Assembly: GCA_028867755.1 (NCBI GenBank)
Contig: JAGWFT010000002.1
Span: forward strand, 96,001-160,000
From: Nitrososphaerota archaeon
GTDB taxonomy: Archaea > Thermoproteota > Nitrososphaeria > Nitrososphaerales > Nitrosopumilaceae
Direction of reading: 5' to 3'
DNA: 64,000 nt
A model generated the notes under the pieces. The model was given only the letters and a program-made list of their open reading frames with translations, was not told the DNA's origin and ran no database searches. This document shows positions 3,969 through 16,740 of this stretch, one piece after another. A program made the translations under genes and the position numbers. Position 1 is the stretch's first letter; every line of letters starts with the position of its first letter.

Positions 3969-5084
3969 CTAGTCAAACAGGAACTTGTCTACTTGGTCTT
4001 TTGCTTTTTCTCTCTTCTTTTTGAAATCTGCAATGAAAGGTTTAGTGGCATCCTTGAGGTTGCATTTGCACTCTCCGCAAAGAAGCTCGCCGCCCTTGCA
4101 TTTTCTTGCCCTCTCGTCTGATTCTTTTTCCATGTCAAAAAAGTATCTTAGGTACCAAAATACCGGACATATGTTGAAATTAGCTCCAAGTTTTCGCTGT
4201 AGCTCAACAGTAGGCTGGCCTCCAGTAAATGTATTTGAGATCTTTTTGTCTATTGCCTCTTCGGTGTCTGTTGTAAATATTGCAGTCTCTGGAATCGAAG
4301 ATGACATCTTTCCTTGCATTCCAAGCCCCGGCAAGAACTTGGAGTGGATCTGAGTTGGCTTTGTGTATCCCATCTTTTCTGCAATGTCTCTTGTGACACG
4401 CCAGTATGGATCCTGGTCTATTGCTGCAGGTATGAGAACTGGAGTTGGCTTGCCCTCGATGACAGATGGAAGAAAACATGGTGCAGCCTGGATTGGCGGA
4501 AAACCTATCATTCCTATGTTTGTAGAGTTTTGAAATCCAAATACTGCCTTTACTGTTGAAAACGTTATGCGCTTTGCTATCTCAAGTGCTATTGGGTAAA
4601 TTCTCTTGATGTCCTTTGTATCGACTAGAATCTTTGTCTTTTTTGGATCAAAGCCCACTGCAATTATATCGTAAATGTTCTCTGTGGTATACCCAGATAC
4701 ATCCTTGAATGATTTCTCATCATTGTACAGAAACTTTTCATCGTCGGTAATTTGGAAGATCAAGTTTACATCAAATTTTTCTTGCAAGTATTTGGTAAAT
4801 ATCCATGGAAGCAAGTGCCCCATGTGAATTGAACCTGAAGGTCCTCTGCCTGTATACAGATAGAACTTGTTGCCTTTTTCATACTCTGTCAAAACTTTGT
4901 CAAAATCTCTATGGCTGAAAAAATATCCAAGCTTTAGCATCGGGTGAATCTCGCCTGTTATCTTTTTTACGCGTGCCTGAAGCTCATCTGAAATTTTCTC
5001 TGTGCCAAATTTCTGTATTAATTTGTCATAATCAATATCGCCTTCTACGCTCCAAGGTGTGACCGTAAAATCCTCAGACGACAT
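3969..5084 (-). CDS. trpS: Tryptophanyl-tRNA synthetase
   Basis: FTVTPW N-terminus, TGRGPS..HMGH (HIGH), AIDQDPY, KMSSS. Confidence 0.97.
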   Translation of the reverse strand: MSSEDFTVTPWSVEGDIDYDKLIQKFGTEKISDELQARVKKITGEIHPMLKLGYFFSHRDFDKVLTEYEKGNKFYLYTGRGPSGSIHMGHLLPWIFTKYLQEKFDVNLIFQITDDEKFLYNDEKSFKDVSGYTTENIYDIIAVGFDPKKTKILVDTKDIKRIYPIALEIAKRITFSTVKAVFGFQNSTNIGMIGFPPIQAAPCFLPSVIEGKPTPVLIPAAIDQDPYWRVTRDIAEKMGYTKPTQIHSKFLPGLGMQGKMSSSIPETAIFTTDTEEAIDKKISNTFTGGQPTVELQRKLGANFNICPVFWYLRYFFDMEKESDERARKCKGGELLCGECKCNLKDATKPFIADFKKKREKAKDQVDKFLFD

Positions 5085-5106
5085 TCATGTTTCAGTTAGG
5101 TTAAGG

Positions 5107-5120
5107 TTTAAAAAGTCTTT
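5107..5120 (+). repeat. attL direct repeat TTTAAAAAGTCTTT (overlaps trpS TATA box)
   Basis: Identical to 17249-17262; begins 23 nt upstream of the trpS ATG. Confidence 0.75.
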
Positions 5121-5169
5121 ACGGGATGGAACATTAGGGTTTAAAATTACTGTATTCCATAACTATGAT

Positions 5170-6270
5170 ATGGATAGAAGTTTAACAAGATTTTTTGCAG
5201 GTATCAGAACAGAAACGACAAGAGAAATTTATGATAGGTATCTTAGGTATTTTCTAAACTTTGTAAAAATAAAAGAGGCTAACGGATTGTTGCAACTCAA
5301 AGACTCTTACCTTCAAACTATGGTAGAAGATTACATCATACATCTGAAAGGTAGGGGCTTACGCAAATCCTCGATTGACGGGCAAATTTCAGCATTAGAG
5401 TTATTCTTTGCTATGAATGACAAGATATTGAATTTCAAGAAAATTCGCAAGATGTCGCCTATTCAACTAAAGATACAGGGAAACGGCTCTTACACAACAG
5501 ATGACATTAAGCGTATGTTAGAGGCTACCACATCGTTAAGAAACAAGGCTATAATTCACTGCCTTGCGAGTTTGGGTTGTCGCCCTAATGCGTTCTGCGA
5601 TCCGCCGTTAAGATTGAGGCATCTAAAAGAGGTCAAGGATGGATATTATTCAGTTCTAATGTACGAAGGCAGTGTCGAGGAATACAGAGGATACCTTACA
5701 AAAGAGGCTTCGATTTTGGTGAAAATGTATATGAACGAGAGGTCAAGGCAAGGCGAAGTAATTACACCTGATAGTCCACTCTTTCGAAATCTGTATCGTG
5801 TGGTCTTGTCTAAAGCCAAGCCTATGACCATAAAAGGAATCAAGTCCATGATTTTAGAAATTCTCAAAAAGATGCGGGGCAAAGGCAAGAAGAGAGGAGA
5901 GAGGTATGATACTGCGATGATTGGAGGGTTTAGACATCGCTACATCGAGATATGTGCAAAAAACAGGCTAGATGTTAGGTTAGCGGAGAGATTGGTATCA
6001 CATACACCAAAGAGCGCACCGATGGACAAGCATTATGTAAATATCAATAACATACAGGATGAACTCTTTAACGAGTTTTTAAGAATTGAAAGAGATCTTA
6101 CTATCTCAAAAGAAGAGAAGGAACGACTTGGAAGAATTGAAGCGGAGAAGAAAGTTACAGAACTTGAAAATGATAAAGATAAACGTATCTCGGAATTAGA
6201 AGCACAGGCAACAGAGACAAGAGATATGATTAAGGGCATTTATGCTCTCTTGGGAAGAGACACGACTTAG
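5170..6270 (+). CDS. int: Tyrosine recombinase / integrase
   Basis: LRNKAIIHCLASLGCRP (Arg), GGFRHRY, LVSH and KHY catalytic motifs, plus a C-terminal coiled coil. Start moved to ATG 5170, which has TTTAAAA at 5140-5146 as a TATA box. Confidence 0.9.
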   Translation: MDRSLTRFFAGIRTETTREIYDRYLRYFLNFVKIKEANGLLQLKDSYLQTMVEDYIIHLKGRGLRKSSIDGQISALELFFAMNDKILNFKKIRKMSPIQLKIQGNGSYTTDDIKRMLEATTSLRNKAIIHCLASLGCRPNAFCDPPLRLRHLKEVKDGYYSVLMYEGSVEEYRGYLTKEASILVKMYMNERSRQGEVITPDSPLFRNLYRVVLSKAKPMTIKGIKSMILEILKKMRGKGKKRGERYDTAMIGGFRHRYIEICAKNRLDVRLAERLVSHTPKSAPMDKHYVNINNIQDELFNEFLRIERDLTISKEEKERLGRIEAEKKVTELENDKDKRISELEAQATETRDMIKGIYALLGRDTT

Positions 6271-7025
6271 TTGTTTTTTTTAAATTTATTATAAAGAAAT
6301 TTTGTTTGTTGATTTACATTCTTTACTGTTTTTTTGTCATAAGGTGAACCTATCAATGCATTTAGTTTTTTGTAAAGTTGTTTATCAAACCCATATTTTT
6401 CTGCAAACTTGAAATTAAGCCTTATCATGCCTTCGGCAAATCTCACTTCAGAACTATCCGTGACTTTTTTTGAAAAACCATCTATCATGTTTTTTTGATT
6501 TAATTTAGATAATTCATTTAGAAGATTAAAGATATATGGTGCTGAGATTTCTGCTTTCTGAGACGGTGTAAACTTTGGATTGTCGTAAACCTCGAATCTG
6601 AGTAATTTTTTGGCATCGTTTGCAATACTTGGGGTTTTAACAAAACCATCGTCATCAAGGCTAATTTTGAAATAATAACGTGGATGTTTTGACTCTGGAT
6701 TAATTTTCTTAAGTTTGTTGTGTTTGCGAGCATGTAGCAAAACATCACGCAAGCTTGAATCGGAAAGCCCCGTACCCTTTTTAATTTCTGAATGAGTTGA
6801 TTCCCCATGTATGGCTAGGTAATCTGAAACAAGACACCAGTTTAGAACTTCATCTTTTTGCATCAAAGGTCTAATGAATTCGCTCCATTTGTGAGATTTG
6901 ATGGCTTCTGCAATTTCTCCCAAAATTAATTCACTAACGATATGCAATAAAGATGTTTTAACTCTTATGAAAAATTCGTAACATAATGTCATGTTGTAAC
7001 AGCATGTGCATGTGATGTACAACAT
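6267..7025 (-). CDS. Winged-helix DNA-binding protein (element regulator); true start may lie further downstream
   Basis: DYLAIHGESTHSEIKKGTGLSDSSLRDVLLHARKHNKLKK...RYYF fits a wHTH; divergent from the cargo operon. Confidence 0.65.
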   Translation of the reverse strand: MLYITCTCCYNMTLCYEFFIRVKTSLLHIVSELILGEIAEAIKSHKWSEFIRPLMQKDEVLNWCLVSDYLAIHGESTHSEIKKGTGLSDSSLRDVLLHARKHNKLKKINPESKHPRYYFKISLDDDGFVKTPSIANDAKKLLRFEVYDNPKFTPSQKAEISAPYIFNLLNELSKLNQKNMIDGFSKKVTDSSEVRFAEGMIRLNFKFAEKYGFDKQLYKKLNALIGSPYDKKTVKNVNQQTKFLYNKFKKNN

Positions 7026-7073
7026 AGGTCTGAAATGTTATGGTGTTATTAATTTGAAAAATATCGATTAAAC

Positions 7074-7391
7074 ATGGCAACAACTAGTATTGTATTCTGT
7101 CCTTGTGGATGTGGACTTGAGATAGACAAAGTTCCACTAATTGAGATTCTATCACATGCTAGAAAAGCCTGTCAGAAAATATTAGGAGAATGGAAAATGC
7201 AAAATGAAACAAAAACAAGTTGGCAATACGGTGTAGCCTTCAACAAAATACAATCCTTCTTTCAAAGAAAGGCTACTTGTCCGTTAGCTGACTGCAAACA
7301 GTATGTTGAGGCACACACAATGATAGAGTGCGTTCAGCACTTGAAGAGTTACCTCAACTCAATTGAATTGGAAGGTGGGCAACCAAAATGA
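7074..7391 (+). CDS. Cys/His-rich putative zinc-binding protein
   Basis: CPCGC and CPLADC..H..C..H; first gene of the operon. Confidence 0.6.
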   Translation: MATTSIVFCPCGCGLEIDKVPLIEILSHARKACQKILGEWKMQNETKTSWQYGVAFNKIQSFFQRKATCPLADCKQYVEAHTMIECVQHLKSYLNSIELEGGQPK

Positions 7392-7900
7392 AAACTATTA
7401 GTGTTGTTGCTCTAATCTCAATTCTACCATTTATTTTTTTTACAAATAACGCAAACGCCTACGTTGAAAACATCCAACTACAAGACCAATCTGGAAATAT
7501 GGTTGCTGTTGGATTGGATAATCCAAGTATAACTGCAATTGAACAGGGTTGGGTTTATGGTTCTGTGCAGACAAGCAATACCCAAGTTGTTCAGAATACA
7601 GGTATGTCGGACTTTGTTTCGCAGATAAAGCCGACACCACTTGGTTCAGAAGTTGACTTTGCTGGAAAGTTGGACAGCACAGCCACTATCAGACTTGTAG
7701 ACAATTCTGGGCAAAGTTGGAGTCTGATCTTGGAACCACAAGTGGGGAAGAAGACTAGCCAAGATGCAAGCAGTGGTAGTATGCCAAGTGTTACAGATGT
7801 CCCATACTACGTCTATGGGATAGTGGGACTGATTGGTGTTGGAACAATCCTACTAATCAGAAGGAGGAAGAGGGAAATTGGTGAAATCAGCAGAGTCTAA
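7388..7900 (+). CDS. Secreted protein with C-terminal membrane anchor
   Basis: Sec signal (ANA/Y), beta-rich domain, Ser-rich linker, TM helix, RRRKR tail. Confidence 0.75.
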   Translation: MKTISVVALISILPFIFFTNNANAYVENIQLQDQSGNMVAVGLDNPSITAIEQGWVYGSVQTSNTQVVQNTGMSDFVSQIKPTPLGSEVDFAGKLDSTATIRLVDNSGQSWSLILEPQVGKKTSQDASSGSMPSVTDVPYYVYGIVGLIGVGTILLIRRRKREIGEISRV

Positions 7901-8891
7901 ATTTTTCACCGATCCTTTTCAACTGGCTAGCATCGGTATTGTAGCTGTTGGAGATACTGCCTGTAAACAGGCGGAGCAGTTCAGCAAGATACTGCACAAA
8001 CATGAAGCAATATACCAAGTCGGAGTAGTGGCATTAGTCAAAATCTCTACCGAAGTCTACGAAGATGCAAAACAAATAGCAAAACGTTTTCCAAAAAAAG
8101 AAAGACACAAGGTAGTTGGAATCTGTGCCAAGAACACCACACTGATTCGGGAGTTGGAAAAGTCTGAAGAGTTTGCAGAGAGCAAGCGAGGAGTCTGGCT
8201 ACCGAAACTAAAAGACGGCATAGACAGGATCGTAGAACTTCTTGAAACGCATCAGGTAAGCATAGTCGTTGTCTATCTTGGTAGCGGAGGTCATGCAACA
8301 CTGGGCAGGGAACTCATAACCATTCTCAAGGAAAGATATACGGGCGTTCACTTTGTCGTGGTTTTATGCAAACCATATCACGACAAGTTGTGTGAACCCA
8401 TCTACAAAAACAACCAAAAATTTGTCGTAAAAGGTGGAACTCTCAGTGTAATCTTTGAGAGTGAACTCGTAGAGAACTCGTTTGAAGCAAAAGACATTGA
8501 AAACAACACGAGTCTGTTTGCACTTCTCAACGAGAGAAAGACAGCCACTAACAAGTCTGCACCAGATATGCTGAGATTGATGGAGGCACACAAGCAATAT
8601 GTCATCAAGACCGCAGTGCGAAGCAATCCGATTTATCGCAAGCAGGGACTACTATGGGATACAACAAACAATCACAGAGATGTTACAACCGACACAATCG
8701 TGAGAGGAATCAAAGAAATCGGGATATGTCAAGACTGCCTGTATGTAATATCTGGAAGGACAACAGATGGGCAAATCAAGAATGGAATAATGCAAATCGG
8801 CAAAGGTGGCAAGGGCTTTGATCTAAACTACAGGTTACTGCCAACTGAAAAAAACGACACTCTGCTCATTGGGAAGTTTGAGCCATGCTGA
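7878..8891 (+). CDS. Divergent tubulin/FtsZ-superfamily protein
   Basis: Motif order matches FtsZ: IGIVAVGDTAC (T1), VVVYLGSGGHATLG (signature-like), VVVLCKPY, VIFESELV, NKSAPD (T7-like). Confidence 0.65.
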   Translation: MVKSAESKFFTDPFQLASIGIVAVGDTACKQAEQFSKILHKHEAIYQVGVVALVKISTEVYEDAKQIAKRFPKKERHKVVGICAKNTTLIRELEKSEEFAESKRGVWLPKLKDGIDRIVELLETHQVSIVVVYLGSGGHATLGRELITILKERYTGVHFVVVLCKPYHDKLCEPIYKNNQKFVVKGGTLSVIFESELVENSFEAKDIENNTSLFALLNERKTATNKSAPDMLRLMEAHKQYVIKTAVRSNPIYRKQGLLWDTTNNHRDVTTDTIVRGIKEIGICQDCLYVISGRTTDGQIKNGIMQIGKGGKGFDLNYRLLPTEKNDTLLIGKFEPC

Positions 8892-9002
8892 CCTATCATT
8901 TTTTATTTATTTCTGTGTATACTATTATTGGTAGATTAAATCAGACACATACCAAGAGATATTCATTATGCCAAATGGCTTGCTACCATTTCTGCACTGA
9001 TT

Positions 9003-10787
9003 TTGTTAGTGTATCTGCATTACTGGTTTGTTGCTGTAGTGATTGGTGGTAGTATTATGGGTTGGAAATTCTGGCAGACAAGAGAAGAATATGATAACTA
9101 TCTTGAAGGTGTCATAAGGCGAGTCGAAAACAAAGGCTTGCATAACTTCTTGCAGGTAGTAGCTGATCCCGTACATCCAAAAGGATTCAACATAATAGAT
9201 GAAACGTTAGGTCAACTAAATCAGAACATTCTCATAAATGGTTCTGCAAGAAGTGGAAAAACATGGCTTGGAATGTATCTTTGTTTAAAATTACCACATA
9301 GGAAAATCATTCTCTCTTTCAAAAAATTTCAGAGTAATAATAGAGACTTTGATATTGGTTACAAGTGGATAGACGTATCACAGTTTTTCCCAAACTTGTT
9401 CGCTGACGGGCAAAGTTTTTGTGAGGCATTTCGTTGCGCTTTCTTTAGCGATTTATCAAGTCGTGGACTTATGATCGATACGATCTTGTCTAAGGTCAAT
9501 GAAGTAATTGAGCAAGAGCCTAAGAACTTTGACGAATTCTTCAAGGCACTCGATAGAGTAGCAAAAAGTGGTCAGTGGGATGCCAACATTACAAACATTG
9601 TAAAATCAAAAGTCAAGAAATTACAGGTTGAGGGTGCAAAGCACGGCAGTATTAATTTTAGACAGGGAAACATAGTGTTAGATCTGGGAAATCTTCCAGA
9701 TGATGAGGTAAAGTCCTTTGTAGCCGAGTTATTTTTGAGACAGATAAACAGGATTGAAGAACAGGAACAAAACACAGAGAAGGTCTATGTTGTCATAGAC
9801 GAGGCTTGGCACATTCTAGCCAGCAAACAACAAAAGTCTATCATAGGAACGATGTTGCTTCAGGGTGCTTTCTATATTCAACTTATCATAATTACCCAAA
9901 ACTATACGCATCTTGATGAAGATTATCGGGGGCATTTCGGTTCTCATTTTTGCTTTAGAAATACAAACGATAAGGATTCAAAAGCGATTGAGGCTGGCTA
10001 TGGTGCGTTTGTCAGGGATGGGGTTAGACAATTACCAGATTTTTGCTATACTAATCTTAGATATCAACATGGAGAAAATATCTTACCATATTGGAAATTA
10101 AATTTTGAGAAATTGGAGAGGTTAATACAAGAAGCAAGACAGACTCATGTAGCAGAAGATAACCCACAGGCTGATTTTGTCAGTGATGGAAATAATGTTT
10201 GGAAGGATGGAGAAGAAAAGAAGAAGGATGAAACAAAAGAGAAGGAAAATTTGGAAGAGAGGGCTATTGACGTTCTCAAAAAAAGTGAGGTGGCTATGTA
10301 TGGATATGAACTTGGCAAGGCAGTTGGCGTTAAACCAAAAGATGTAACTACCAGAAGGAAAATTCTAAGAAAACTTTTAGAAGACAATAAAATAAAAGAA
10401 TGGATTTGTCAAATACGAAATGAAGAAGTTTCATACTACTACCTGATTAACGATGGTCGTGATGTATGCCATAATCTTATGACAAGAGAGACAAAGAAAA
10501 AGTTTGGAGACTGGAAGATTATTTTCGAGGCATCGCAGGGAACAGGAGGCGCAGATTTTGTAATACTACGAGAGAAAGATGGAAAGAAAATTGCCATCGA
10601 GTGTGAAACTAGTTTAAAGAAGGACGCCTCGGATCTGCGTGAAAGGATTGAAAAGAACCTTGCAGATGGAATTGACACAATAATTATGAGTCCTACAGAA
10701 GCGGTCAGAGAAAACTATTCTGCTTTGTTTGAGTGCAAATGCTGTCTTATTTCTGAATTGGAGATATTGAAGAATTGGAAAAAGTAA
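9003..10787 (+). CDS. Membrane-associated HerA/FtsK/VirD4-like ATPase fused to wHTH and PD-(D/E)xK nuclease domains; start uncertain
   Basis: Walker A GSARSGKT, Walker B VVIDEAWH, IIITQN, a wHTH near aa 415-480, and GADFVI...IAIECET. Confidence 0.8.
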   Translation: MLVYLHYWFVAVVIGGSIMGWKFWQTREEYDNYLEGVIRRVENKGLHNFLQVVADPVHPKGFNIIDETLGQLNQNILINGSARSGKTWLGMYLCLKLPHRKIILSFKKFQSNNRDFDIGYKWIDVSQFFPNLFADGQSFCEAFRCAFFSDLSSRGLMIDTILSKVNEVIEQEPKNFDEFFKALDRVAKSGQWDANITNIVKSKVKKLQVEGAKHGSINFRQGNIVLDLGNLPDDEVKSFVAELFLRQINRIEEQEQNTEKVYVVIDEAWHILASKQQKSIIGTMLLQGAFYIQLIIITQNYTHLDEDYRGHFGSHFCFRNTNDKDSKAIEAGYGAFVRDGVRQLPDFCYTNLRYQHGENILPYWKLNFEKLERLIQEARQTHVAEDNPQADFVSDGNNVWKDGEEKKKDETKEKENLEERAIDVLKKSEVAMYGYELGKAVGVKPKDVTTRRKILRKLLEDNKIKEWICQIRNEEVSYYYLINDGRDVCHNLMTRETKKKFGDWKIIFEASQGTGGADFVILREKDGKKIAIECETSLKKDASDLRERIEKNLADGIDTIIMSPTEAVRENYSALFECKCCLISELEILKNWKK

Positions 10788-11680
10788 AAATTCCTAGAGA
10801 CTGGTCTAGAGTCAGGGATGCCATAGTCAGCCGTATTCTGGGGTTTACTACAACATCAGCTAATGCAAAACCATATCGAGACAAAAAGGGAGACTTGGTT
10901 ATACCGATGGGTCACGACGGGGCTTGGCTGATTATATGCATGATGCTCTCAACTCTCATTTTTGCTGGCATCTTTCGTATATCTGGGATGAGTCTTGCAG
11001 AAACGCAGACAGAGTTTCCAAAGTATGATGCTGAGTGGATTTTTCTTATAATGGTCTTATTCCTTTTGCCAAGAATAGTTTTCAGAGGAATTTTAGGCTA
11101 TAGAGATATCCCTAAAGGTTGGACAAGAGAACAGGCTGAGGCTTTTTTTAATTTACAAGGAGCGAGGTCAAGGTGGAAAAGCCTTCTAGAAGAGGTGCTT
11201 GCATGGTTTCCTCTGATAACTTGTTTTAAAATAATTAACAATGTTGGCAAACAAGTTGGTGGTAAGGATTGGAAATTTGGCAGGTGGCTAGTAACTGTTT
11301 TTGCGTGGATGGTTGGATATTATGCATTTTTTAGACTGGTGTTTTGGGTTGAATCTTATGTAAAAGACGCAACGTTAAGCACGTTACTTCCAATAAGTGC
11401 GATAGTCTTTGCTATCATAGCACCTATAGTTTATGCAAGGAAAAAATATCTCACACATTTCAAGAATAACAAAAGATCTCTTGTTGAAGCCTATATGGAA
11501 ATAAAACATGGAAGGCGATGGAGAGTGTGGCTTTATGCATTTATTGGCGTTGGATTGTGCGGTGTTCCCTTGATGATGTATTTTGGGATTGACAAATTAT
11601 TATTTAGCGTGCCAGCCTATTTTGGATTACTTGTTTTCTGTGCATTGAAAGGCAGAGGAAAGTTAAGAAGAAAAAACTAG
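10775..11680 (+). CDS. Polytopic membrane protein (~7 TM)
   Basis: About seven hydrophobic segments; overlaps the ATPase stop. Confidence 0.75.
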   Translation: MEKVKIPRDWSRVRDAIVSRILGFTTTSANAKPYRDKKGDLVIPMGHDGAWLIICMMLSTLIFAGIFRISGMSLAETQTEFPKYDAEWIFLIMVLFLLPRIVFRGILGYRDIPKGWTREQAEAFFNLQGARSRWKSLLEEVLAWFPLITCFKIINNVGKQVGGKDWKFGRWLVTVFAWMVGYYAFFRLVFWVESYVKDATLSTLLPISAIVFAIIAPIVYARKKYLTHFKNNKRSLVEAYMEIKHGRRWRVWLYAFIGVGLCGVPLMMYFGIDKLLFSVPAYFGLLVFCALKGRGKLRRKN

Positions 11681-11754
11681 TATCTTTTACTTGAAGTGTA
11701 GAACCCAGAGCGAGGCTTCTTAGATGTTGTGTTTCTAAATAATATTGTGATGAA

Positions 11755-12174
11755 ATGGAAAATGAAACACCACAGATTGAGGAGAGGTATAGGAGACTAT
11801 ACAGAAGTTATGAAACAGAAGACAAGAAAAGGTCTTACGACCTGTTTGTAAGACAGGACAAGAGCAGGACAACGGTATCAACCATACAGAGCGAGAAGAT
11901 CGCAGAAGGCGAGGAAAAATCAATCTCTGTATTTCTCCGAGAAGAGAACCACATAATCTCTATTGAGGTCTGGACGGGCTTTGTAGGTGATGTTCTCAAA
12001 AAGTACGAGCGTCAGTATACTGGACGAGTGGATTATGACATTGGAGCTCTCTTTATGAGCGAGATATACGACAACGCACTACGCATCAACAGCAGGACGC
12101 CATCGGTTGCAAAGGTCTCGGAAAAAATAATAGACTTTGCAAAAATGCACAGGGAGAAGCAGAAATCATTATGA
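11755..12174 (+). CDS. Hypothetical protein
   Basis: 139-aa soluble ORF in the element operon. Confidence 0.6.
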   Translation: MENETPQIEERYRRLYRSYETEDKKRSYDLFVRQDKSRTTVSTIQSEKIAEGEEKSISVFLREENHIISIEVWTGFVGDVLKKYERQYTGRVDYDIGALFMSEIYDNALRINSRTPSVAKVSEKIIDFAKMHREKQKSL

Positions 12175-12175
12175 A

Positions 12176-12415
12176 ATGCGACAGAAAAATAGACAAATCA
12201 AGTATGCACTTGTGTTACTACAAGTTGGTCTTTTAGCAAGTGCATTTTTTCTTTTCTTTGGTCTAGTGGCGATGATGCTATATCTAATTGGTGAAATTAG
12301 CATCGCTGAGATTGTTGATTATTTGCTACTTTCTACTACGTGGGAGAGTGTGGGAATAACATTTTTTGAAGGTTTGATATGGATTGCGTTTAAGAAAAAT
12401 AGGTCGAAAAAATGA
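12176..12415 (+). CDS. 79-aa two-TM membrane protein (pilin-sized)
   Basis: Basic N-terminus, two hydrophobic helices, basic C-terminus; ATG lies 2 nt after the previous stop. Confidence 0.65.
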   Translation: MRQKNRQIKYALVLLQVGLLASAFFLFFGLVAMMLYLIGEISIAEIVDYLLLSTTWESVGITFFEGLIWIAFKKNRSKK

Positions 12416-12537
12416 TAGACAATATATTGAATTTCCTACTTGGATTGATTGATGGTACTTATGATAATGATGAAGATGTGAATGAAAAACTAAAGGTGAT
12501 TGAACGAGAAAAATTAAAGAGTTTAAAAAGAAAATAG
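12412..12537 (+). CDS. 41-aa ORF (not in ORF track)
   Basis: ATGA overlap with the previous stop; MIDNILNFLLGLIDGTYDNDEDVNEKLKVIEREKLKSLKRK. Confidence 0.5.
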   Translation: MIDNILNFLLGLIDGTYDNDEDVNEKLKVIEREKLKSLKRK

Positions 12538-12560
12538 ATCCACGATCCTGCAAGCATAAG

Positions 12561-12677
12561 ATGCTTGTCTATTATCGGAGAAGGTATGGAAATGTAGTAT
12601 GGGAGTTCTGGCGTTGCCTTGATTGTAAAAAAATAGTTCGCAAGGCAATATGGAATGTAAAGAATTTCTTTGGTTAA
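12561..12677 (+). CDS. 38-aa ORF with a CxxC knuckle (not in ORF track)
   Basis: MLVYYRRRYGNVVWEFWRCLDCKKIVRKAIWNVKNFFG; an in-frame CKH lies just upstream of the ATG. Confidence 0.4.
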   Translation: MLVYYRRRYGNVVWEFWRCLDCKKIVRKAIWNVKNFFG

Positions 12678-12726
12678 ATGGTAGGTGTGTGGGCTTACTC
12701 TTTATTCGACCCACACGGAGAGTAAC

Positions 12727-12924
12727 TTACTTTGTTTTGTCTGGTTCTTTTCTTAGAAGGTGCTGATATGGGCTAGGGCGGTACATTGTTACTACCCCAT
12801 GACGAATCATGTCGTCCATTATTTCGCTGTCCTTCAAAGGACGCTGGCAAAGTCTACAATAGACTCTGTACGTCCAATATGGTCTTCTATTTTCATAGAA
12901 GGTTCTTGGTTTGTTGTTTTCCAT
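12727..12924 (-). CDS. Small CxxC protein
   Basis: MENNKPRTFY...YCRLCQRP; a GAGGT SD-like sequence precedes ATG 12924. Confidence 0.5.
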   Translation of the reverse strand: MENNKPRTFYENRRPYWTYRVYCRLCQRPLKDSEIMDDMIRHGVVTMYRPSPYQHLLRKEPDKTK

Positions 12925-13093
12925 TTCCGTTACCTCGCCTAGTTTCTTAGGCAGTATTATTACTATAATCCTGCACTTTAAGTTATCTTCAAAAACAAAT
13001 GTCATTGTAATGAAAATGAGCGAAGCCTAAAGACGACCAGTTTTATCATAACCTTAAATCTCTCAAATTATCGAATAAAATAAGAGAATTCGT

Positions 13094-16069
13094 ATGGATC
13101 TAACAAAAGAAAATCTGCATGTTATCATCAGCGAATTTAGAGAATGGTTCAAGGGCAATGATGGTCAGAGGCATTTCAATAACATAGAGAAGGAAAAACA
13201 AGATGTAAAGGATCTCATGAAAAAACTAAAACCAATGGATAAGAACTCGCCAGAGTTCGTTGACTGGGTTCTATATGGGTTGCTACCTTATTTTAAAACA
13301 AAATTTGCAAAACGTGTTAGTACATTTCCCGTATTTCTAAACATAAAACTCTTCCTTAAAAATCGTAACGAGGAAGATTGGACAATATTGGCGAATATGA
13401 TATATGATCTTGCTCACAATTTTCAAGAAACGCCCAATAAGTTAGATATCTGGATTAAAGATTTTATTTCTGACAAAGCTCGTAGTAGAATGATTCAGTG
13501 TGGCACAATATCTCCGATAATATTTTGTATCAACGAATCGTTCCCAGTAGTGAATAACAGGGTCAGACATACCTACAATGAATTTGCAACTGTTTTTGGT
13601 TGGAATGATATCATGTCTCAGAAATTAGAACACTATTTGGACAATGTAAAAAAATGTCAGAAACTTATTGATGCATTAGGTGTTGAAGAACTTAGAAATC
13701 TTACCATTTTTGATGAATTCTGTTATTGGTATGATTATATTTACAAAGGAGAAAACGATGAGGAAGAAGAAACTGAATCTGATGTTGAGGTAAAGACAAG
13801 AGCTGAGGAAGTTAATCTTCCAATGTTTCTTGAGTCTGCACAATTAAGTAATCTAGCTAAATTTGAACCGCATTCGCTACGTAATCCAGAGAGAATCAAA
13901 ATCGACCAGATTATTTCTAATGCTTCTAACGGTAAATGGGTTCTACCAAATTTTCAAAGATATTTTGATTGGAAGAAGAACGATGTCAAGGAATTACTAA
14001 AATCAATATTCAACGATTATTATGTAGGAGCACTTCTTCTGTGGGATGTCGGAAAAGAACCAGAATTAGATCCTATGCCCATCATGGGTGTGGATATTAG
14101 AAAGGACGAACTCAAACCAAATTCTATCATTTTAGACGGGCAACAAAGGATTACATCGCTTTATTACGCACTGAGAGCGCCTAATTTTCCATTGCGGGGT
14201 AGTAGCGCACCTCTCTATTTTTACATTAACTTTTCTGAATTTTTTAATCAAAATGAGTCGAGTGACATTATAGAAATATTACCGAGAAAATTGGGCAGAG
14301 ATGAATCTTTTAAAAAAAGACTGTTTCCATTCTATGAATTAGAGAAGTATTCTGAATGGGTAGATGGTTTTGAAGATTTTATGTTGAAGGCTTCAACAGA
14401 CCAAGATAAGATAAGATCTATTAGGAGAATCATCGACAAAAAATTAAGGCATGTAATAGACGGTTTTGAAATTCCATATATCTCTCTTCCAGAAACAATG
14501 GAATTACCACAAGTAACCGATATTTTTGAAAAAATAAACACGATGGGAAAAGTCCTTAGCGTATTTGATCTTTTGATAGCTAGACTTAGCAAATACGAAA
14601 TAGAATTGAAAACACATTGGGAGGAATCCGTTAAGCGATTCCCTAAATTGCTTGAATATTACAAATCAATAGATAAGATACCCATTTACATCCTTCAGGC
14701 AATTTCCCTCTGCTATAATAAAACTAGTTCTTGTAAAAGAGAAGATATTCTAAATATATATCAAAATGTTTTTGAGCCTACAGATCTTTCCTTTGAGGAA
14801 ATTTGGAACGAGATGACAGAATACTTGAACAAGGGCATATTAAAAATTGAAAATCTGAGAGATGGGTTTGGTGTTAAAGACAGAAATGAGTTGCCGTTTG
14901 CTCCTATGATTCCTATACTGGCAGCCCTAACTAAGGAAATTGAATCGAGACATAACAAAGTCGACTGTTACAAAAAACTTGGCACATGGTACTGGACATC
15001 AGTCTTCTCTAATGCATACTCTGGTGCTGTTGATAGCCAGTTAACAGCAGATTTCAAGGAAATGAAAGATTGGTTCTCCGATGATACTAAGATTCCAAAA
15101 ACAGTAGATAGAGCTAGGAGAGAATTTGCCACGTTGAATCTTCGTGAAATACAATCTAAATCAAGTGCGATGTACAGAGGAGTCTTGTCACTTTTAGCGT
15201 TGGAAGGAGCTAATGACTTTAACACTAATCAAACCCTTGAGAATGCCCGAAATAACGATAAAGACCACCTGTTTCCCAAAGCTGAATTTCATTCTATGAG
15301 GAATGTAAATTCTATTTTAAACATAAGCTGGATGTCTGATGAGACCAACAGGAAGATTAAGAGATACAAGAAACCCTCCGCTTATGTCAAAGAGTTCATT
15401 AAGGAAAAATATGGCGGAAATGAAAAAGAATTTTTGAAAGTTTTGGAAAGTCATTTCATAAACAAAAATGCCTATGATTGTATGTTAAGAGATGACTTTC
15501 AGGGTTTCATTTCTGAACGCGAAAAAGTCGTTCTTGGTAAGATTAAGAATGCGATCGGTCTTGAAGGTACTGTACAAGACCACACTCTGATAACTCCAGA
15601 GCAACCATTTTCAAATCGTGTAGCTTTCTGGAATACGATAAAATCCTGTGATAGTTATATTTACTGGGTCGATAAATATTTCTCAAAGGAAGGACTCGAG
15701 CTACTCTCTCAATCATTGGATACAAACAAAACAAAAACTGTAAAGATAATCATTTCAGTTGAGAAAGCAGATGAAAAACTAAGAAGTCTCTTCAAAGACT
15801 TTAGAGAAGAGATGAAAAACAAGAATACTATCTGCGAGCTCAGGGTGATAACCGATTCTAAGTTGAAATCAAGTATACACGACAGATGGATATTGTCAAA
15901 GAACAGTTGTTTTAACATACCGTCGCCTGACACAGTAGCGAGAGGTCAGTACAGTGAAATAAAAGCCACAGAAAACAGACCTCCTTTCGATGATTGGTGG
16001 ACGAGAAGCCTCGATATAATCAACAATTGGAATGAAATTCAGAAAAGTAAAGAGATAATTTCAAAATAA
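13094..16069 (+). CDS. GmrSD-like (DUF262 + DUF1524/HNH) restriction endonuclease with extra N- and C-terminal domains
   Basis: LPNFQRYFDW, ILDGQQRITSL and IFEKINT (DUF262); DHLFP...N..N.SW...N (HNH); C-terminal IHDRW motif. Confidence 0.85.
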   Translation: MDLTKENLHVIISEFREWFKGNDGQRHFNNIEKEKQDVKDLMKKLKPMDKNSPEFVDWVLYGLLPYFKTKFAKRVSTFPVFLNIKLFLKNRNEEDWTILANMIYDLAHNFQETPNKLDIWIKDFISDKARSRMIQCGTISPIIFCINESFPVVNNRVRHTYNEFATVFGWNDIMSQKLEHYLDNVKKCQKLIDALGVEELRNLTIFDEFCYWYDYIYKGENDEEEETESDVEVKTRAEEVNLPMFLESAQLSNLAKFEPHSLRNPERIKIDQIISNASNGKWVLPNFQRYFDWKKNDVKELLKSIFNDYYVGALLLWDVGKEPELDPMPIMGVDIRKDELKPNSIILDGQQRITSLYYALRAPNFPLRGSSAPLYFYINFSEFFNQNESSDIIEILPRKLGRDESFKKRLFPFYELEKYSEWVDGFEDFMLKASTDQDKIRSIRRIIDKKLRHVIDGFEIPYISLPETMELPQVTDIFEKINTMGKVLSVFDLLIARLSKYEIELKTHWEESVKRFPKLLEYYKSIDKIPIYILQAISLCYNKTSSCKREDILNIYQNVFEPTDLSFEEIWNEMTEYLNKGILKIENLRDGFGVKDRNELPFAPMIPILAALTKEIESRHNKVDCYKKLGTWYWTSVFSNAYSGAVDSQLTADFKEMKDWFSDDTKIPKTVDRARREFATLNLREIQSKSSAMYRGVLSLLALEGANDFNTNQTLENARNNDKDHLFPKAEFHSMRNVNSILNISWMSDETNRKIKRYKKPSAYVKEFIKEKYGGNEKEFLKVLESHFINKNAYDCMLRDDFQGFISEREKVVLGKIKNAIGLEGTVQDHTLITPEQPFSNRVAFWNTIKSCDSYIYWVDKYFSKEGLELLSQSLDTNKTKTVKIIISVEKADEKLRSLFKDFREEMKNKNTICELRVITDSKLKSSIHDRWILSKNSCFNIPSPDTVARGQYSEIKATENRPPFDDWWTRSLDIINNWNEIQKSKEIISK

Positions 16070-16085
16070 TCCACAGTTTGTTTAG

Positions 16086-16151
16086 ATCTTCGATAAGAAA
16101 CTTGTTACCGCCTATCTTGTTAATACCTCCGTAAAAGGTAAGGCTTGTCAA
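16086..16151 (-). pseudogene. 5' remnant of an MBL-fold (RNase J-like) hydrolase gene
   Basis: TTG start giving MTSLTFYGGINKIGGNKFLIED, which matches the beta1-GG..EIGGN start of RNase J-like MBL proteins; similarity stops after 22 codons. Confidence 0.6.
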
Positions 16152-16253
16152 TTACTGTTTTTCTCGAACTATAGTTAAGAGTTCCTTGATTTACAAGCCA
16201 ACACCCAACATCTGCTATTGATTCACATCCCAAAGGGTGAGCCGAAGGCTCGC

Positions 16254-16517
16254 TTAATCCTTACCATATACTTGTTTATGACTGCCAACTCTACGCAGTT
16301 CTATTGTATTGTTTACAAAATCAACCGAGTAGATAATTCTATTACTCTTATCAAGGTTGTAGGCATATACTCTTAGACTCTGTTTGTAGTCGCCTAATTT
16401 TGTAGGATTTTCAGACTTGACTAATTCAGCGAGTACCGAGTCAACTCTTTTTTGAAAATCAGAACTCAATGACTTGTATTGTTTGATAAACTTCTTGTTT
16501 GGAGCAAGTATCCACAA
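16254..16517 (-). CDS. relE: RelE/ParE-superfamily toxin
   Basis: FIKQYKSL...RIIYSVD...RVGSHKQVY; 87 aa. Confidence 0.8.
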   Translation of the reverse strand: MWILAPNKKFIKQYKSLSSDFQKRVDSVLAELVKSENPTKLGDYKQSLRVYAYNLDKSNRIIYSVDFVNNTIELRRVGSHKQVYGKD

Positions 16518-16518
16518 T

Positions 16519-16665
16519 TTAACTATGTAATTCTTTGAGAAGTTCTTCTAAAGTGCTTCGTTTTATCTTGCCTTTGGCTTTATCGGACTCGTATTCTTTG
16601 ATATCTGCTATCTCTTCTGGTGTGAGATCGTCTTCTACTTTGGTCTTCTTTGTGGCTCGTTGCAT
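16519..16665 (-). CDS. 48-aa RelB-like antitoxin (not in ORF track)
   Basis: MQRATKKTKVEDDLTPEEIADIKEYESDKAKGKIKRSTLEELLKELHS; stop is 1 nt from the toxin start. Confidence 0.75.
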   Translation of the reverse strand: MQRATKKTKVEDDLTPEEIADIKEYESDKAKGKIKRSTLEELLKELHS

Positions 16666-16674
16666 GTTACCTTC

Positions 16675-16740
16675 ACTATGTTATAGCATAGTAGAATAAT
16701 TAAAACTATGTGTAACTATTGTAACTATGTTTGACTATTG
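16675..16740. promoter_or_regulatory. ACTATG palindrome plus four phased ACTAT repeats
   Basis: ACTATG-ttatag-CATAGT at 16675-16692; ACTAT at 16705, 16715, 16724 and 16734. Confidence 0.6.

Follow-up and report, generated by a model that had tools for sequence, protein, structure and literature searches.

A conserved operon with a predicted tubulin-fold protein and a membrane-anchored ATPase fusion forms the backbone of small integrative elements in Nitrosotalea

What does a compact operon of membrane proteins, an ATPase and a tubulin-like protein do next to an integrase gene in an ammonia-oxidising archaeon? Plasmids, conjugation and non-tailed viruses are almost unknown in these organisms, which are key nitrifiers. 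We analyzed a window of 64,000 nt from a Nitrosotalea genome (GenBank assembly GCA_028867755.1, contig JAGWFT010000002.1, positions 96,001 to 160,000) in which a first-pass annotation had proposed a tight operon within an integrase-bearing element, read as a reduced DNA-transfer machine of the Ced or TraB kind with a cytoskeletal protein as a supplement. In our reading, the core operon probably serves to maintain and export the element that carries it.

The operon lies within an insertion of 12,142 bp that is bounded by an exact 14-bp direct repeat (Table 1). The target of the insertion is the 40-bp intergenic region between trpS and pheS. In most of the congeneric genomes sampled, a spacer of about 40 bp separates the two genes; many of these genomes have an empty site, and the att core occurs once per site in all eight of the congeneric trpS/pheS intergenic sequences that were inspected. 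With repeats, an empty target in relatives and a recombinase gene at one end, the locus is a tyrosine-recombinase integrative element: its integrase inserted it into the trpS/pheS spacer and duplicated the TATA-like 14-bp core. The integrase ORF opens at 5059, though the likely start is a Met near 5170, and Pfam Phage_integrase was found in the integrase homologues of related loci. Because the integrase gene is intact at one end, we rejected an SSV-type split integrase. A 24-nt imperfect repeat (5413-5436 and 12412-12435) was also considered as an att site and was not accepted, since the empty-site comparison sets the ends at the 14-bp core.

Table 1. Features of the integrative element. Positions are those of the window; a point marks features with no strand.
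Feature	Position	Strand	Basis
attL core (TTTAAAAAGTCTTT), left end of the element	5107..5120	.	exact 14-bp match to 17249-17262
Tyrosine integrase	5170..6270	+	NCBIfam XerA 5e-10, plus XerD/XerC matches
Divergent 252-aa protein, possible wHTH regulator	6267..7025	-	weak PHROG MarR/Ren-like matches only
105-aa Cys/His-rich protein (CxC...H...C)	7074..7391	+	motif recurs in related loci
170-aa secreted, C-terminally anchored surface protein	7388..7900	+	N- and C-terminal hydrophobic helices; homologues in 10 loci
337-aa predicted tubulin/FtsZ-fold protein, new small family	7878..8891	+	predicted structure
594-aa ATPase: TM helix, VirB4/HerA-class motor, wHTH, putative PD-(D/E)xK-like domain	9003..10787	+	sequence-model and structural matches
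301-aa polytopic membrane protein	10775..11680	+	6 hydropathy segments at threshold; start overlaps ATPase stop by 13 nt
139-aa soluble conserved protein	11755..12174	+	homologues at the same position in 8 loci
79-aa protein, read as 2-TM hairpin (92 aa if started at 12137)	12176..12415	+	homologues in 11 loci
991-aa GmrSD-like defence protein, cargo outside the conserved core	13094..16069	+	Pfam GmrSD_N 5e-30; PADLOC PDC-M55C, HEC-05
ParE-like toxin (16254-16517) and small upstream partner ORF (16519-16665)	16254..16665	-	Pfam ParE-like_toxin
Short tandem repeats (16704-16740), then ~400-nt GC-rich structured noncoding region by attR	16704..17160	+	conservation, covariation
attR core, right end of the element	17249..17262	.	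14-bp repeat and empty-site comparison

The same arrangement recurs elsewhere. The synteny search that the first-pass annotation had suggested for the tubulin-ATPase-TM block recovered a conserved order of integrase, reverse gene, Zn-motif protein, surface protein, ~340-aa protein, ATPase, polytopic TM protein, 139-aa protein and 2-TM protein. At least 15 related genomic and metagenomic loci have all or a large part of this order. The integrase gene was found in 15 of 15 clustered loci, and together with the ATPase gene, which holds a fixed position in every element, it makes up the universal core of the family. The reverse gene encodes 190-290 aa at the same position in most related elements and falls into several sequence clusters. 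Carriers are patchily distributed across the 400 Nitrososphaeria examined: 8 of the 30 Nitrosotalea have such an element, as do 2 of the 78 genomes in one further family. Copies of the element reside at different chromosomal sites, and other copies have short direct repeats beside the integrase gene, such as the TAAAAAACATTAGG shared by L008 and L016. This patchy spread among close relatives, combined with the differing sites, implies effective horizontal movement. Thus, 7074-12415 is the conserved backbone operon of small integrative elements (about 8-12 kb) found in Nitrosotalea and in a small number of other Nitrososphaeria. Its right-hand limit is 12415 rather than the 12677 given originally. 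Such a recurrent family, with exact ends and an empty-site reference, is a concrete object for the study of gene flow in Nitrosotalea and a possible chassis for genetic tools.

The elements resemble the cryptic integrated elements (CIE) of Thaumarchaeota, which bear integrases, are mostly under 20 kb, lack recognizable viral and conjugative hallmark genes and are also known to integrate between genes (Krupovic et al. 2019, PMC6563490). In contrast to the Nitrosotalea family with its clear signature operon, the CIE are stated to have no discernible signature genes (PMC6563490). Those of its listed Nitrosotalea elements that we inspected use tRNA genes, and neither of the att cores found here is in its supplementary tables (PMC6563490).

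The operon genes overlap by 4, 23 and 13 nt or are separated by gaps of 111 and 74 nt, which bears out the tight packing first described. Every operon protein other than the 105-aa one, whose Cys/His motif recurs, is conserved at the amino-acid level in other genomes, and we therefore take the ORFs as real genes rather than chance reading frames. We did not accept a 55-aa ORF at 8885-9052 as a gene, because it shares sequence, in a different frame, with the part of the ATPase gene that codes for the conserved N-terminal helix, and because its apparent homologues are frame shadows. In agreement with the first-pass annotation, searches of Pfam, PHROGs and NCBIfam found no Rep, relaxase, primase or capsid protein among the core proteins, and an Rfam search across 5000-17400 gave no match. 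The first two genes encode a Zn-motif protein and a surface-anchored protein, as initially described. By hydropathy, the 170-aa protein begins with a signal-like helix and has a TM helix near its C terminus, ahead of the sequence RRRKRE, giving type-I topology with an ectodomain of ~110 aa; its match to the Loki-CTERM sorting domain is weak (18.3 bits versus a cut-off of 19.9). A comparable CxxC...H...C motif is fused to the N terminus of the surface-protein homologue in three related loci (L011, L019 and L022) and occupies a separate small ORF in L023.

The 337-aa protein had been described as a divergent tubulin/FtsZ, and its predicted structure agrees, with the N-terminal Rossmann-like GTPase domain and helix H7 of the tubulin/FtsZ type. 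Residues 243-337 were modeled with low confidence, in a secondary-structure order compatible with the C-terminal activation domain. This part of the family contains invariant N-H-x-D...D and N-E...D stretches, for which equivalence to the T7 loop is only possible. The tubulin signature GGGTG[ST]G is absent from loop T4, which reads G-S-G-G-H-A in this protein, and only the GG pair of the loop is invariant across the family. Pfam Tubulin (PF00091) matched neither the 337-aa protein nor the 10 most distant of its 22 relatives. Because the family profile also found no tubulin in the PDB, the assignment is one of predicted structure. Of the first 15 loci, only 8 have a gene at this position that can be detected as tubulin-like. 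The predicted structure supports a previously unrecognized tubulin/FtsZ-superfamily fold for which GTP binding and polymerization are predicted. The protein would extend the superfamily to a family borne on archaeal mobile elements that is invisible to current profiles. FtsZ-based systems are not known from the host phylum.

The closest functional precedents are the TubZ type III partition systems of Bacillus plasmids and Clostridium phage c-st, and the phage protein PhuZ. Unlike these, the 337-aa protein comes from an archaeal host, shows no sequence similarity to them and no Pfam Tubulin or TubZ_C match, has divergent T1 and T4 motifs (GSGGHA in place of GGGTGSG) and is encoded by a gene that overlaps the surface-protein gene. 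No TubR-like adaptor gene and no tubC or centromere repeats were recognized nearby. The sole repeats near the operon are 1.9 copies of an 18-nt unit at 6978-7013, at the 5' end of the 252-aa reverse gene, and the genes upstream are those of the Zn-motif and surface proteins. By precedent, and with a ParE-like toxin also present in the element, the protein is better read as having a TubZ-like maintenance function than as the supplement to a transfer machine that was first envisaged.

The 594-aa protein was initially described as a membrane ATPase with wHTH and nuclease domains, and this architecture is supported, the nuclease domain as a putative one. A single N-terminal TM helix precedes an FtsK-HerA-class P-loop motor with the VirB4 C-terminal-domain fold and Walker A and B motifs, which belongs to the VirB4/HerA/DndH/TrwB type. 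The best family-level sequence matches are CedB, TraC and AAA_10. CedB is the best NCBIfam match (E 7e-11), but the alignment is short (148 motor residues) and its 41.4 bits are far under the cut-off of 700, so it indicates class and not orthology; the TraC/VirB4 model scored 20.1 bits against a cut-off of 567. The putative nuclease-like domain was modeled as H482-499, E505-509, E519-522, E529-534, H543-554 and E558-563. H490, D518 and E533 are conserved, position 535 is E (K in two members), and the domain matches NOV_C, PDDEXK_10 and AF1548 at sub-threshold levels only. We conclude that the protein is a membrane-anchored ATPase of the VirB4/HerA/TrwB class with wHTH and putative nuclease-like domains. 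The dsDNA translocases FtsK/SpoIIIE and Streptomyces TraB are built on a like domain plan: they associate with the membrane, pump as hexamers and take their sequence direction from a C-terminal winged helix. TraB alone suffices for conjugative transfer of dsDNA. The fusion suggests how recognition, processing and pumping of DNA could merge in one protein, which would bear on how minimal DNA-transfer or packaging machines can be.

The motor fold is equally near the defence and repair translocases DndH, HerA and TdpA, which raises the possibility that the ATPase-nuclease serves anti-phage or anti-plasmid defence or exclusion in the manner of HerA-nuclease systems (Nezha, DUF4297-HerA, TdpAB or Dnd-like), with its TM neighbors as accessories. 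DndH-C, the SIR2-HerA and DUF4297-HerA complexes and TdpAB are among the top structural matches, PADLOC reports mad8 at 1.2e-8 and HerA weakly (0.006), and the fused PD-(D/E)xK-like domain would fit such a role. The gene, however, is a universal core gene at a fixed position that is translationally coupled to membrane proteins, whereas the defence genes of these elements, such as that of the GmrSD-like protein, are variable cargo. The TM anchor and the family-level matches to CedB, TraC and AAA_10 also speak against defence, which we consider very improbable.

Homologues of the 301-aa protein directly follow the ATPase in 8 loci; hydropathy counts six segments in it rather than the roughly seven originally given. 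It matched no known family in Pfam, NCBIfam, PDB profiles or the ESM Atlas, where feature and structure searches returned unrelated sub-threshold rows only, and a deep protein search with the polytopic-protein alignment returned the protein itself and one relative. The 79-aa protein had been called a 2-TM protein: hydropathy identifies one segment, and the second hydrophobic stretch is our reading of the sequence. Its homologues carry an extra charged C-terminal tail in some elements, which is a separate ORF in others. It had no match in the PDB, Pfam or NCBIfam, and PDB profile searches with the 2-TM and polytopic families gave chance-level rows only. For the 139-aa protein, encoded by a further ORF of the operon, the only match was a weak one to PHROG 1737 (function unknown), and the ESM Atlas gave nothing.

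Based on the adjacency of these genes, the ATPase may be coupled to the polytopic protein. A predicted complex of the two scored 0.40 compared to 0.00 for the best control, with at least 42% of contacts agreeing between runs and partner pLDDT of at least 52. Of 80 solved complexes, 58 reached the mark used, against 2 of 110 mismatched pairs; only 7 of the 80, however, did so with a score of 0.60 or less, as did both of the mismatches that passed. The prediction lends weak support to this coupling, for which the 13-nt gene overlap and the conserved adjacency also speak.

[quoted passage not shown] In these systems, as in the element, a membrane-associated VirB4/HerA-class ATPase is encoded beside a polytopic protein and a small 2-TM protein (in the element, a putative hairpin). 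The two systems have in common the minimal T4SS triad of VirB4, VirB6 and VirB2, with no recognizable sequence similarity to one another (PMC9905601). Searches of Pfam, NCBIfam and PDB profiles, and for the 301-aa protein also of the Atlas and by deep protein search, linked neither the 301-aa protein to CedA/TedA/VirB6 nor the 79-aa protein to CedA1/TedC/VirB2. Given the mutual dissimilarity of Ced and Ted components (PMC9905601), undetectable TM partners are expected and not disqualifying. Other differences are that Ced and Ted are domesticated chromosomal import systems rather than the backbone of a mobile element, and that the element ATPase has additional wHTH and nuclease-like domains and a CedB score far under the cut-off; the element also adds a tubulin-fold gene and a surface protein. 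A Ced/Ted-like transfer reading of the operon is plausible by analogy. Of the Ced/TraB-like machine first proposed, the conserved module and the ATPase class, with CedB and TraC as best matches, have held up. The unlinked TM proteins and the low CedB score make the likeness one of architecture and not of homology or function.

Our preferred reading has two parts, TubZ-like maintenance and reduced, conjugation-like DNA export, and we give it a probability of roughly 0.4. The tubulin-fold protein would form TubZ-like filaments that position or segregate the excised episome, with the ParE-like toxin pair perhaps aiding retention. The ATPase would act as a hexamer of the VirB4/CedB/HerA class held at the membrane by its N-terminal helix. 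Its wHTH may recognize element DNA, akin to the sequence-directing wHTH of FtsK and Streptomyces TraB, its PD-(D/E)xK-like domain could process that DNA, and the motor would pump it onto or through a complex in the membrane that the polytopic and 2-TM proteins would form. An outward-facing contact or exclusion factor might be supplied by the Zn-motif and surface proteins. The route as a whole would be reduced and conjugation-like, with a parts list analogous to the VirB4, VirB6 and VirB2 of Ced/Ted. Counting against the transfer part, published thaumarchaeal ICEs are much larger, and the majority combine VirB4 and VirD4 with VirB6 (PMC6563490). A bolder version is rather doubtful: that these 8-12 kb elements are self-transmissible by a third minimal apparatus for archaeal DNA transfer, diverged independently of Ced and Ted, that unites a VirB4-like pump with DNA recognition and cleavage in a single membrane-anchored protein, and that a novel tubulin-superfamily cytomotive filament borne on a mobile element retains them in the cell.

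Much of the same gene content could instead belong to a temperate membrane-enveloped virus or vesicle-borne "plasmidion", comparable to pleolipoviruses, pR1SE and the suspected pT26-2 and pL6 elements. The surface protein would then serve as a spike or in membrane fusion, envelope or capsid-like structural roles would fall to the 2-TM and polytopic proteins, and the ATPase-wHTH-nuclease would act in the manner of a packaging enzyme that recognizes, cuts and loads the genome. A small core (~7 kb) of overlapping genes in strictly conserved order is compatible with such a virus, as is the type-I topology of the 170-aa protein. In spindle-shaped archaeal viruses the major capsid proteins are typically small with two TM segments, and an ATPase and nuclease in a single chain parallels terminase logic. 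Against this, the ATPase alignment found no relative in IMG/VR contigs, none of 10 scanned element proteins matched PHROGs virion families, and the surface-protein ectodomain is only ~110 aa. The motor also resembles VirB4, HerA and DndH more closely than B204, a packaging ATPase, and a tubulin-type partition protein with a ParE-like toxin suggests a plasmid-like lifestyle. The pleolipovirus-like alternative of the first-pass annotation therefore gained nothing from PHROGs or IMG/VR, and we regard a virus as possible but not likely.

The pT26-2 and pL6 elements, compared here by description, likewise stand between plasmid and virus with an ATPase and membrane proteins (PMC6972569; bioRxiv 10.1101/2024.08.07.607104). 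The pT26-2 elements of Thermococcales and Methanococcales are small to mid-sized, with a conserved VirB4/HerA-like ATPase and several TM proteins (PMC6972569), and haloarchaeal pL6 plasmids have a conserved AAA+ ATPase and one TMD protein (10.1101/2024.08.07.607104). Neither group has capsid genes or similarity outside its own family, and their spread has been left between a secretion system, vesicles and a virus (PMC6972569; 10.1101/2024.08.07.607104). Both differ from the Nitrosotalea elements in host phylum. The pT26-2 elements are 17-38 kb and often have a Rep gene in a variable region, pL6 plasmids have no integrase, and neither description mentions a tubulin-fold protein or an ATPase-wHTH-nuclease fusion.

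The right end of the element bears on a further alternative, vertical maintenance of the episome with no horizontal transfer. In that case the tubulin-fold protein would segregate the element, and the ATPase would resolve, decatenate or process replication intermediates at the membrane or initiate replication at the structured region, with the TM proteins as anchors. TM segments, a motor and a wHTH are the architecture of FtsK, a chromosome-resolution pump, and HerA-nuclease pairs process DNA ends (HerA-NurA is among the PDB matches). No other Rep protein is recognizable, an origin could lie in the conserved structured region and its neighboring short repeats, and the element has a ParE-like toxin (Pfam 1e-5; 25.8 bits versus a cut-off of 28). 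A secreted surface protein and a conserved 2-TM protein, though, have no obvious role in segregation, Pfam FtsK_SpoIIIE matched only 1 of 22 ATPase family members, and weakly, and the horizontal movement implied by the distribution is at odds with purely vertical inheritance. We judge this alternative unlikely. Under the two-part reading, the structured region next to attR could act in cis, as an origin or as a site of transfer or recognition, or else be an RNA. It shows 71-98% nucleotide identity in patches, compared to only 25-60% for proteins of the same elements, and 20 of its 49 predicted pairs have compensatory changes.

The window carries a precise integrative element with a conserved signature operon. 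Between trpS and pheS lie, in order, an integrase gene, a divergent gene for a 252-aa protein, a plus-strand operon and cargo genes, in a Nitrosotalea assembly of 1.64 Mb; GC content is ~38%. Both ends of the element carry the exact 14-bp repeat TTTAAAAAGTCTTT. In most same-genus genomes sampled, trpS and pheS are divergent neighbors ~40 bp apart, and the 14-mer occurs exactly once in each of the eight congeneric trpS/pheS intergenic regions displayed (locus L032 of unpublished genome G010, and published genomes G004, G005, G013, G018, G019, G020 and G025). The two halves of the uninterrupted site match the left and right junctions in the window. The repeat and the empty sites together therefore define an insertion of exactly 12,142 bp in a spacer that resembles a bidirectional promoter. 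The att core within this 40-bp spacer looks like a shared TATA-box region (5085-5125 and 17240-17280), and thus integration would have duplicated a TATA-like core, one for each gene. Other insertions of ~1 kb or more occupy the spacer in several congeneric genomes (among loci L027-L055), and at L054 an integrase-like match adjoins trpS. This variety of insertions marks the spacer as a hotspot. In related elements, similar short repeats sit next to the integrase gene and again at a distance of ~11 kb; TAAAAAACATTAGG is common to loci L008 and L016, and repeats of 14-16 nt likewise lie near the integrase at L009 and L010. Thaumarchaeota were already known to contain cryptic integrated elements, a category for which a 2019 survey states that there are no signature genes, and both att cores found here are absent from the tables of that survey (PMC6563490).

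Features of the integrated element and of its predicted ATPase. Nucleotide positions refer to the window; ATPase domains are given as residues of the AF2 model.
Feature	Position	Strand	Remarks
trpS	3969-5084	minus	left flank
attL	5107-5120		14-bp core
105-aa protein	7074-7391	plus	operon, Zn motif
170-aa protein	7388-7900	plus	operon, surface protein
337-aa protein	7878-8891	plus	operon, predicted tubulin fold
594-aa ATPase	9003-10787	plus	operon
301-aa protein	10775-11680	plus	operon, polytopic
139-aa protein	11755-12174	plus	operon
79-92-aa protein	12137/12176-12415	plus	operon, 2-TM; two possible starts
GmrSD-like protein, 991 aa	13094-16069		GmrSD_N; PADLOC HEC-05, PDC-M55C, PDC-S05
ParE-like toxin, 87 aa, and preceding 48-aa ORF	16254-16665	minus	Pfam 1e-5, just under gathering score
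Conserved noncoding region	16704-17160		short tandem repeats, AACTATGT-like (16704-16740), then ~400-nt GC-rich stretch
attR	17249-17262		14-bp core
pheS	from about 17267		right flank
ATPase helix	residues 2-26		followed by a beta-hairpin
ATPase P-loop motor	helical insertion at residues 136-205
ATPase linker	residues 383-413		disordered, acidic/basic
ATPase winged-helix unit	residues 411-481
ATPase C-terminal domain	residues 482-582		alpha-beta-beta-beta-alpha-beta

The operon ORFs are closely packed, with overlaps of 4, 23 and 13 nt and otherwise short gaps. Hydropathy analysis revealed a signal-like N-terminal helix and a C-terminal anchor in the 170-aa protein, a single N-terminal hydrophobic helix in the ATPase, six hydrophobic segments in the 301-aa protein and one segment at threshold in the 79-92-aa protein, whose second stretch was read from the sequence by eye. 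The ATPase helix is translated, because its sequence is kept among homologues despite differing called starts. A 55-aa ORF at 8885-9052 was rejected as a gene; it is a frame shadow that overlaps this conserved helix.

The first-pass annotation had proposed that these genes form a reduced DNA-transfer module like Ced or TraB, a proposal that requires them to occur together in other elements, and this co-occurrence was clearly found. Searching with the ATPase and the 337-aa protein, we gathered loci from metagenomes, assemblies and genomes of the same genus, and clustered all ORFs. The recurrent order is integrase, reverse gene (several clusters), small Zn-motif ORF, surface protein, a gene of 270-410 codons, ATPase, polytopic membrane protein, sometimes a gene of 104-109 codons, 139-aa protein, 2-TM protein, variable cargo, conserved noncoding region and element end. 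Of the 15 loci in the first set, all have the integrase and the ATPase, 11 the 2-TM protein, 10 the surface protein, 8 the polytopic protein and likewise 8 the 139-aa protein. Copies lie next to various housekeeping genes, including serS, a gene beside grpE, and a ribosomal S11 gene, whose site is occupied in two genomes. The distribution is patchy: among 400 Nitrososphaeria genomes searched, the module was found in 8 of 30 from Nitrosotalea and in just one other family, with 2 of its 78 genomes positive. Locus L009 belongs to the unpublished genome G032; since public locus L021 has the same element, all claims stand without G032. In another Nitrososphaeria family, L070 (G252:C11) and L071 (G176:C33) encode distant ATPase homologues of 653-712 aa adjoined by a 2-TM protein of ~110-150 aa, and at L071 an integrase gene is separated from this pair by one small ORF. 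The pairing of ATPase and small membrane protein thus reaches beyond Nitrosotalea. Some copies are decaying: the G013 integrase is split into two overlapping frames (L008:5793-6903), and the G212 ATPase has in-frame stop codons (G212:C30:4621-6254; L065, L069).

Among 5.8 billion protein clusters, just nine close homologues of the 337-aa protein turned up, and a profile that includes divergent members recovered 22 proteins in 1.84 billion representatives, with no Pfam domain in the ten most distant. The AF2 model is confident over most of the N-terminal part (10-residue blocks of residues 21-160 average 67-92) and poor beyond residue 243. Three structure searches concur; among them, Foldseek against the PDB returned only tubulins, TubZ, CetZ and PhuZ as top matches, and the neighbors in the Atlas are Tubulin, CetZ, FtsZ and phage TubZ-like clusters. 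Strand 4 is followed by the loop GSGGHA, whose GG pair is invariant even at ~20% identity; neither the canonical GGGTGSG signature nor the glycine-rich T1 loop is preserved. Neither Pfam nor a search of the family profile against the PDB linked the protein to tubulins by sequence. Given the structural matches, the divergent motifs and this lack of a sequence link, we call it a predicted tubulin/FtsZ-fold protein of a new family, outside any named tubulin family. Homologues occupy the same position at 8 of the first 15 loci; the others have a similar-sized gene there with no detectable similarity. We consider it improbable that the operon serves maintenance of the element only.

The operon also encodes a membrane-anchored VirB4/HerA-class ATPase with winged-helix and nuclease-like domains. 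Pfam AAA_10 matches 16 of 22 members of the ATPase family. Among NCBIfam models, CedB (E 7e-11, 41 bits against a cut-off of 700) and TraC score best. The AF2 model has a pLDDT of 83. H490, D518 and E533 of the C-terminal domain show little or no variation in the family alignment. At position 535 most members have E and two have K, which gives these two a (D/E)xK motif. The matches to a nuclease fold (NOV_C, PDDEXK_10 and AF1548) are all sub-threshold, and the domain is therefore a probable nuclease, short of proof.

No family match was found for the Zn-motif, surface, 2-TM or polytopic proteins in Pfam, PHROGs, NCBIfam, PDB profiles or the Atlas. The N-terminal CxC...H...C motif of the 105-aa protein recurs elsewhere as CxxC...H...C, fused to the N-terminus of surface-protein homologues (L011:4655-5179, L019:8067-8765 and L022:2689-3240) or as a separate mini-ORF just upstream of the surface-protein gene (L023:8108-8257). 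This pattern of fusion and fission suggests that the 105-aa and 170-aa proteins probably form one working unit, a cytoplasmic Zn knuckle plus an external domain. The 2-TM protein has a charged C-terminal tail in some elements, which is a separate ORF in others. Polytopic family members share an N-terminal motif, four core membrane helices and a 'KYF.DIP.GW' loop, with a variable number of C-terminal helices. Complex prediction for ATPase residues 1-385 with the polytopic protein scored 0.40 (best control 0.00), with at least 42% of contacts agreeing between runs and a partner pLDDT of at least 52. The mark used was passed by 58 of 80 solved complexes versus 2 of 110 mismatched pairs, and at scores of 0.60 or below only 7 of the 80 solved complexes passed, as did both passing mismatches; the model thus hints at a contact between the two proteins.

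The operon resembles Ced and Ted in its parts list, and the ATPase resembles FtsK and TraB in its motor-plus-wHTH logic. Ced and Ted components are mutually unrecognizable by sequence (PMC9905601). Full-text searching, which cannot prove absence, found no paper describing the operon, the tubulin-fold family or the ATPase fusion. Every function of the operon is one that we infer, and we tentatively favor a dual module (probability ~0.4) that combines TubZ-like maintenance with a reduced conjugation-like DNA export machine, in which the ATPase would recognize, cut and pump element DNA at a membrane assembly of the TM proteins. Virus-like or vesicle-borne spread seems rather unlikely to us; the same debate surrounds the pT26-2 and pL6 elements (PMC6972569; 10.1101/2024.08.07.607104).

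Downstream of the operon, the GmrSD-like protein is defence cargo specific to the window copy of the element, and the ParE-like toxin and the preceding ORF probably constitute a type II toxin-antitoxin pair. The PADLOC mad8 model also matches the ATPase, and we regard defence as a very improbable role for the operon. The GC-rich noncoding region beside attR retains 71-98% nucleotide identity across elements, whereas their proteins are far more diverged. Whole hairpins are swapped for different self-complementary sequences at the same positions, compensatory changes affect 20 of 49 predicted pairs, and no Rfam family matched. Excision would bring this region to a position immediately upstream of attP and the integrase gene. 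It could encode a noncoding RNA or act in cis as DNA, serving as an origin or as a transfer or recognition site.

Two further repeats were observed. A 24-nt imperfect direct repeat (21/24 identical) lies within the integrase gene (5413-5436) and directly after the last operon gene (12412-12435), and may have arisen by chance. The 252-aa reverse ORF, whose first ~20 codons appear non-coding, has at its 5' end an 18-nt unit repeated 1.9 times (6978-7013), a possible operator within the divergent promoter region.
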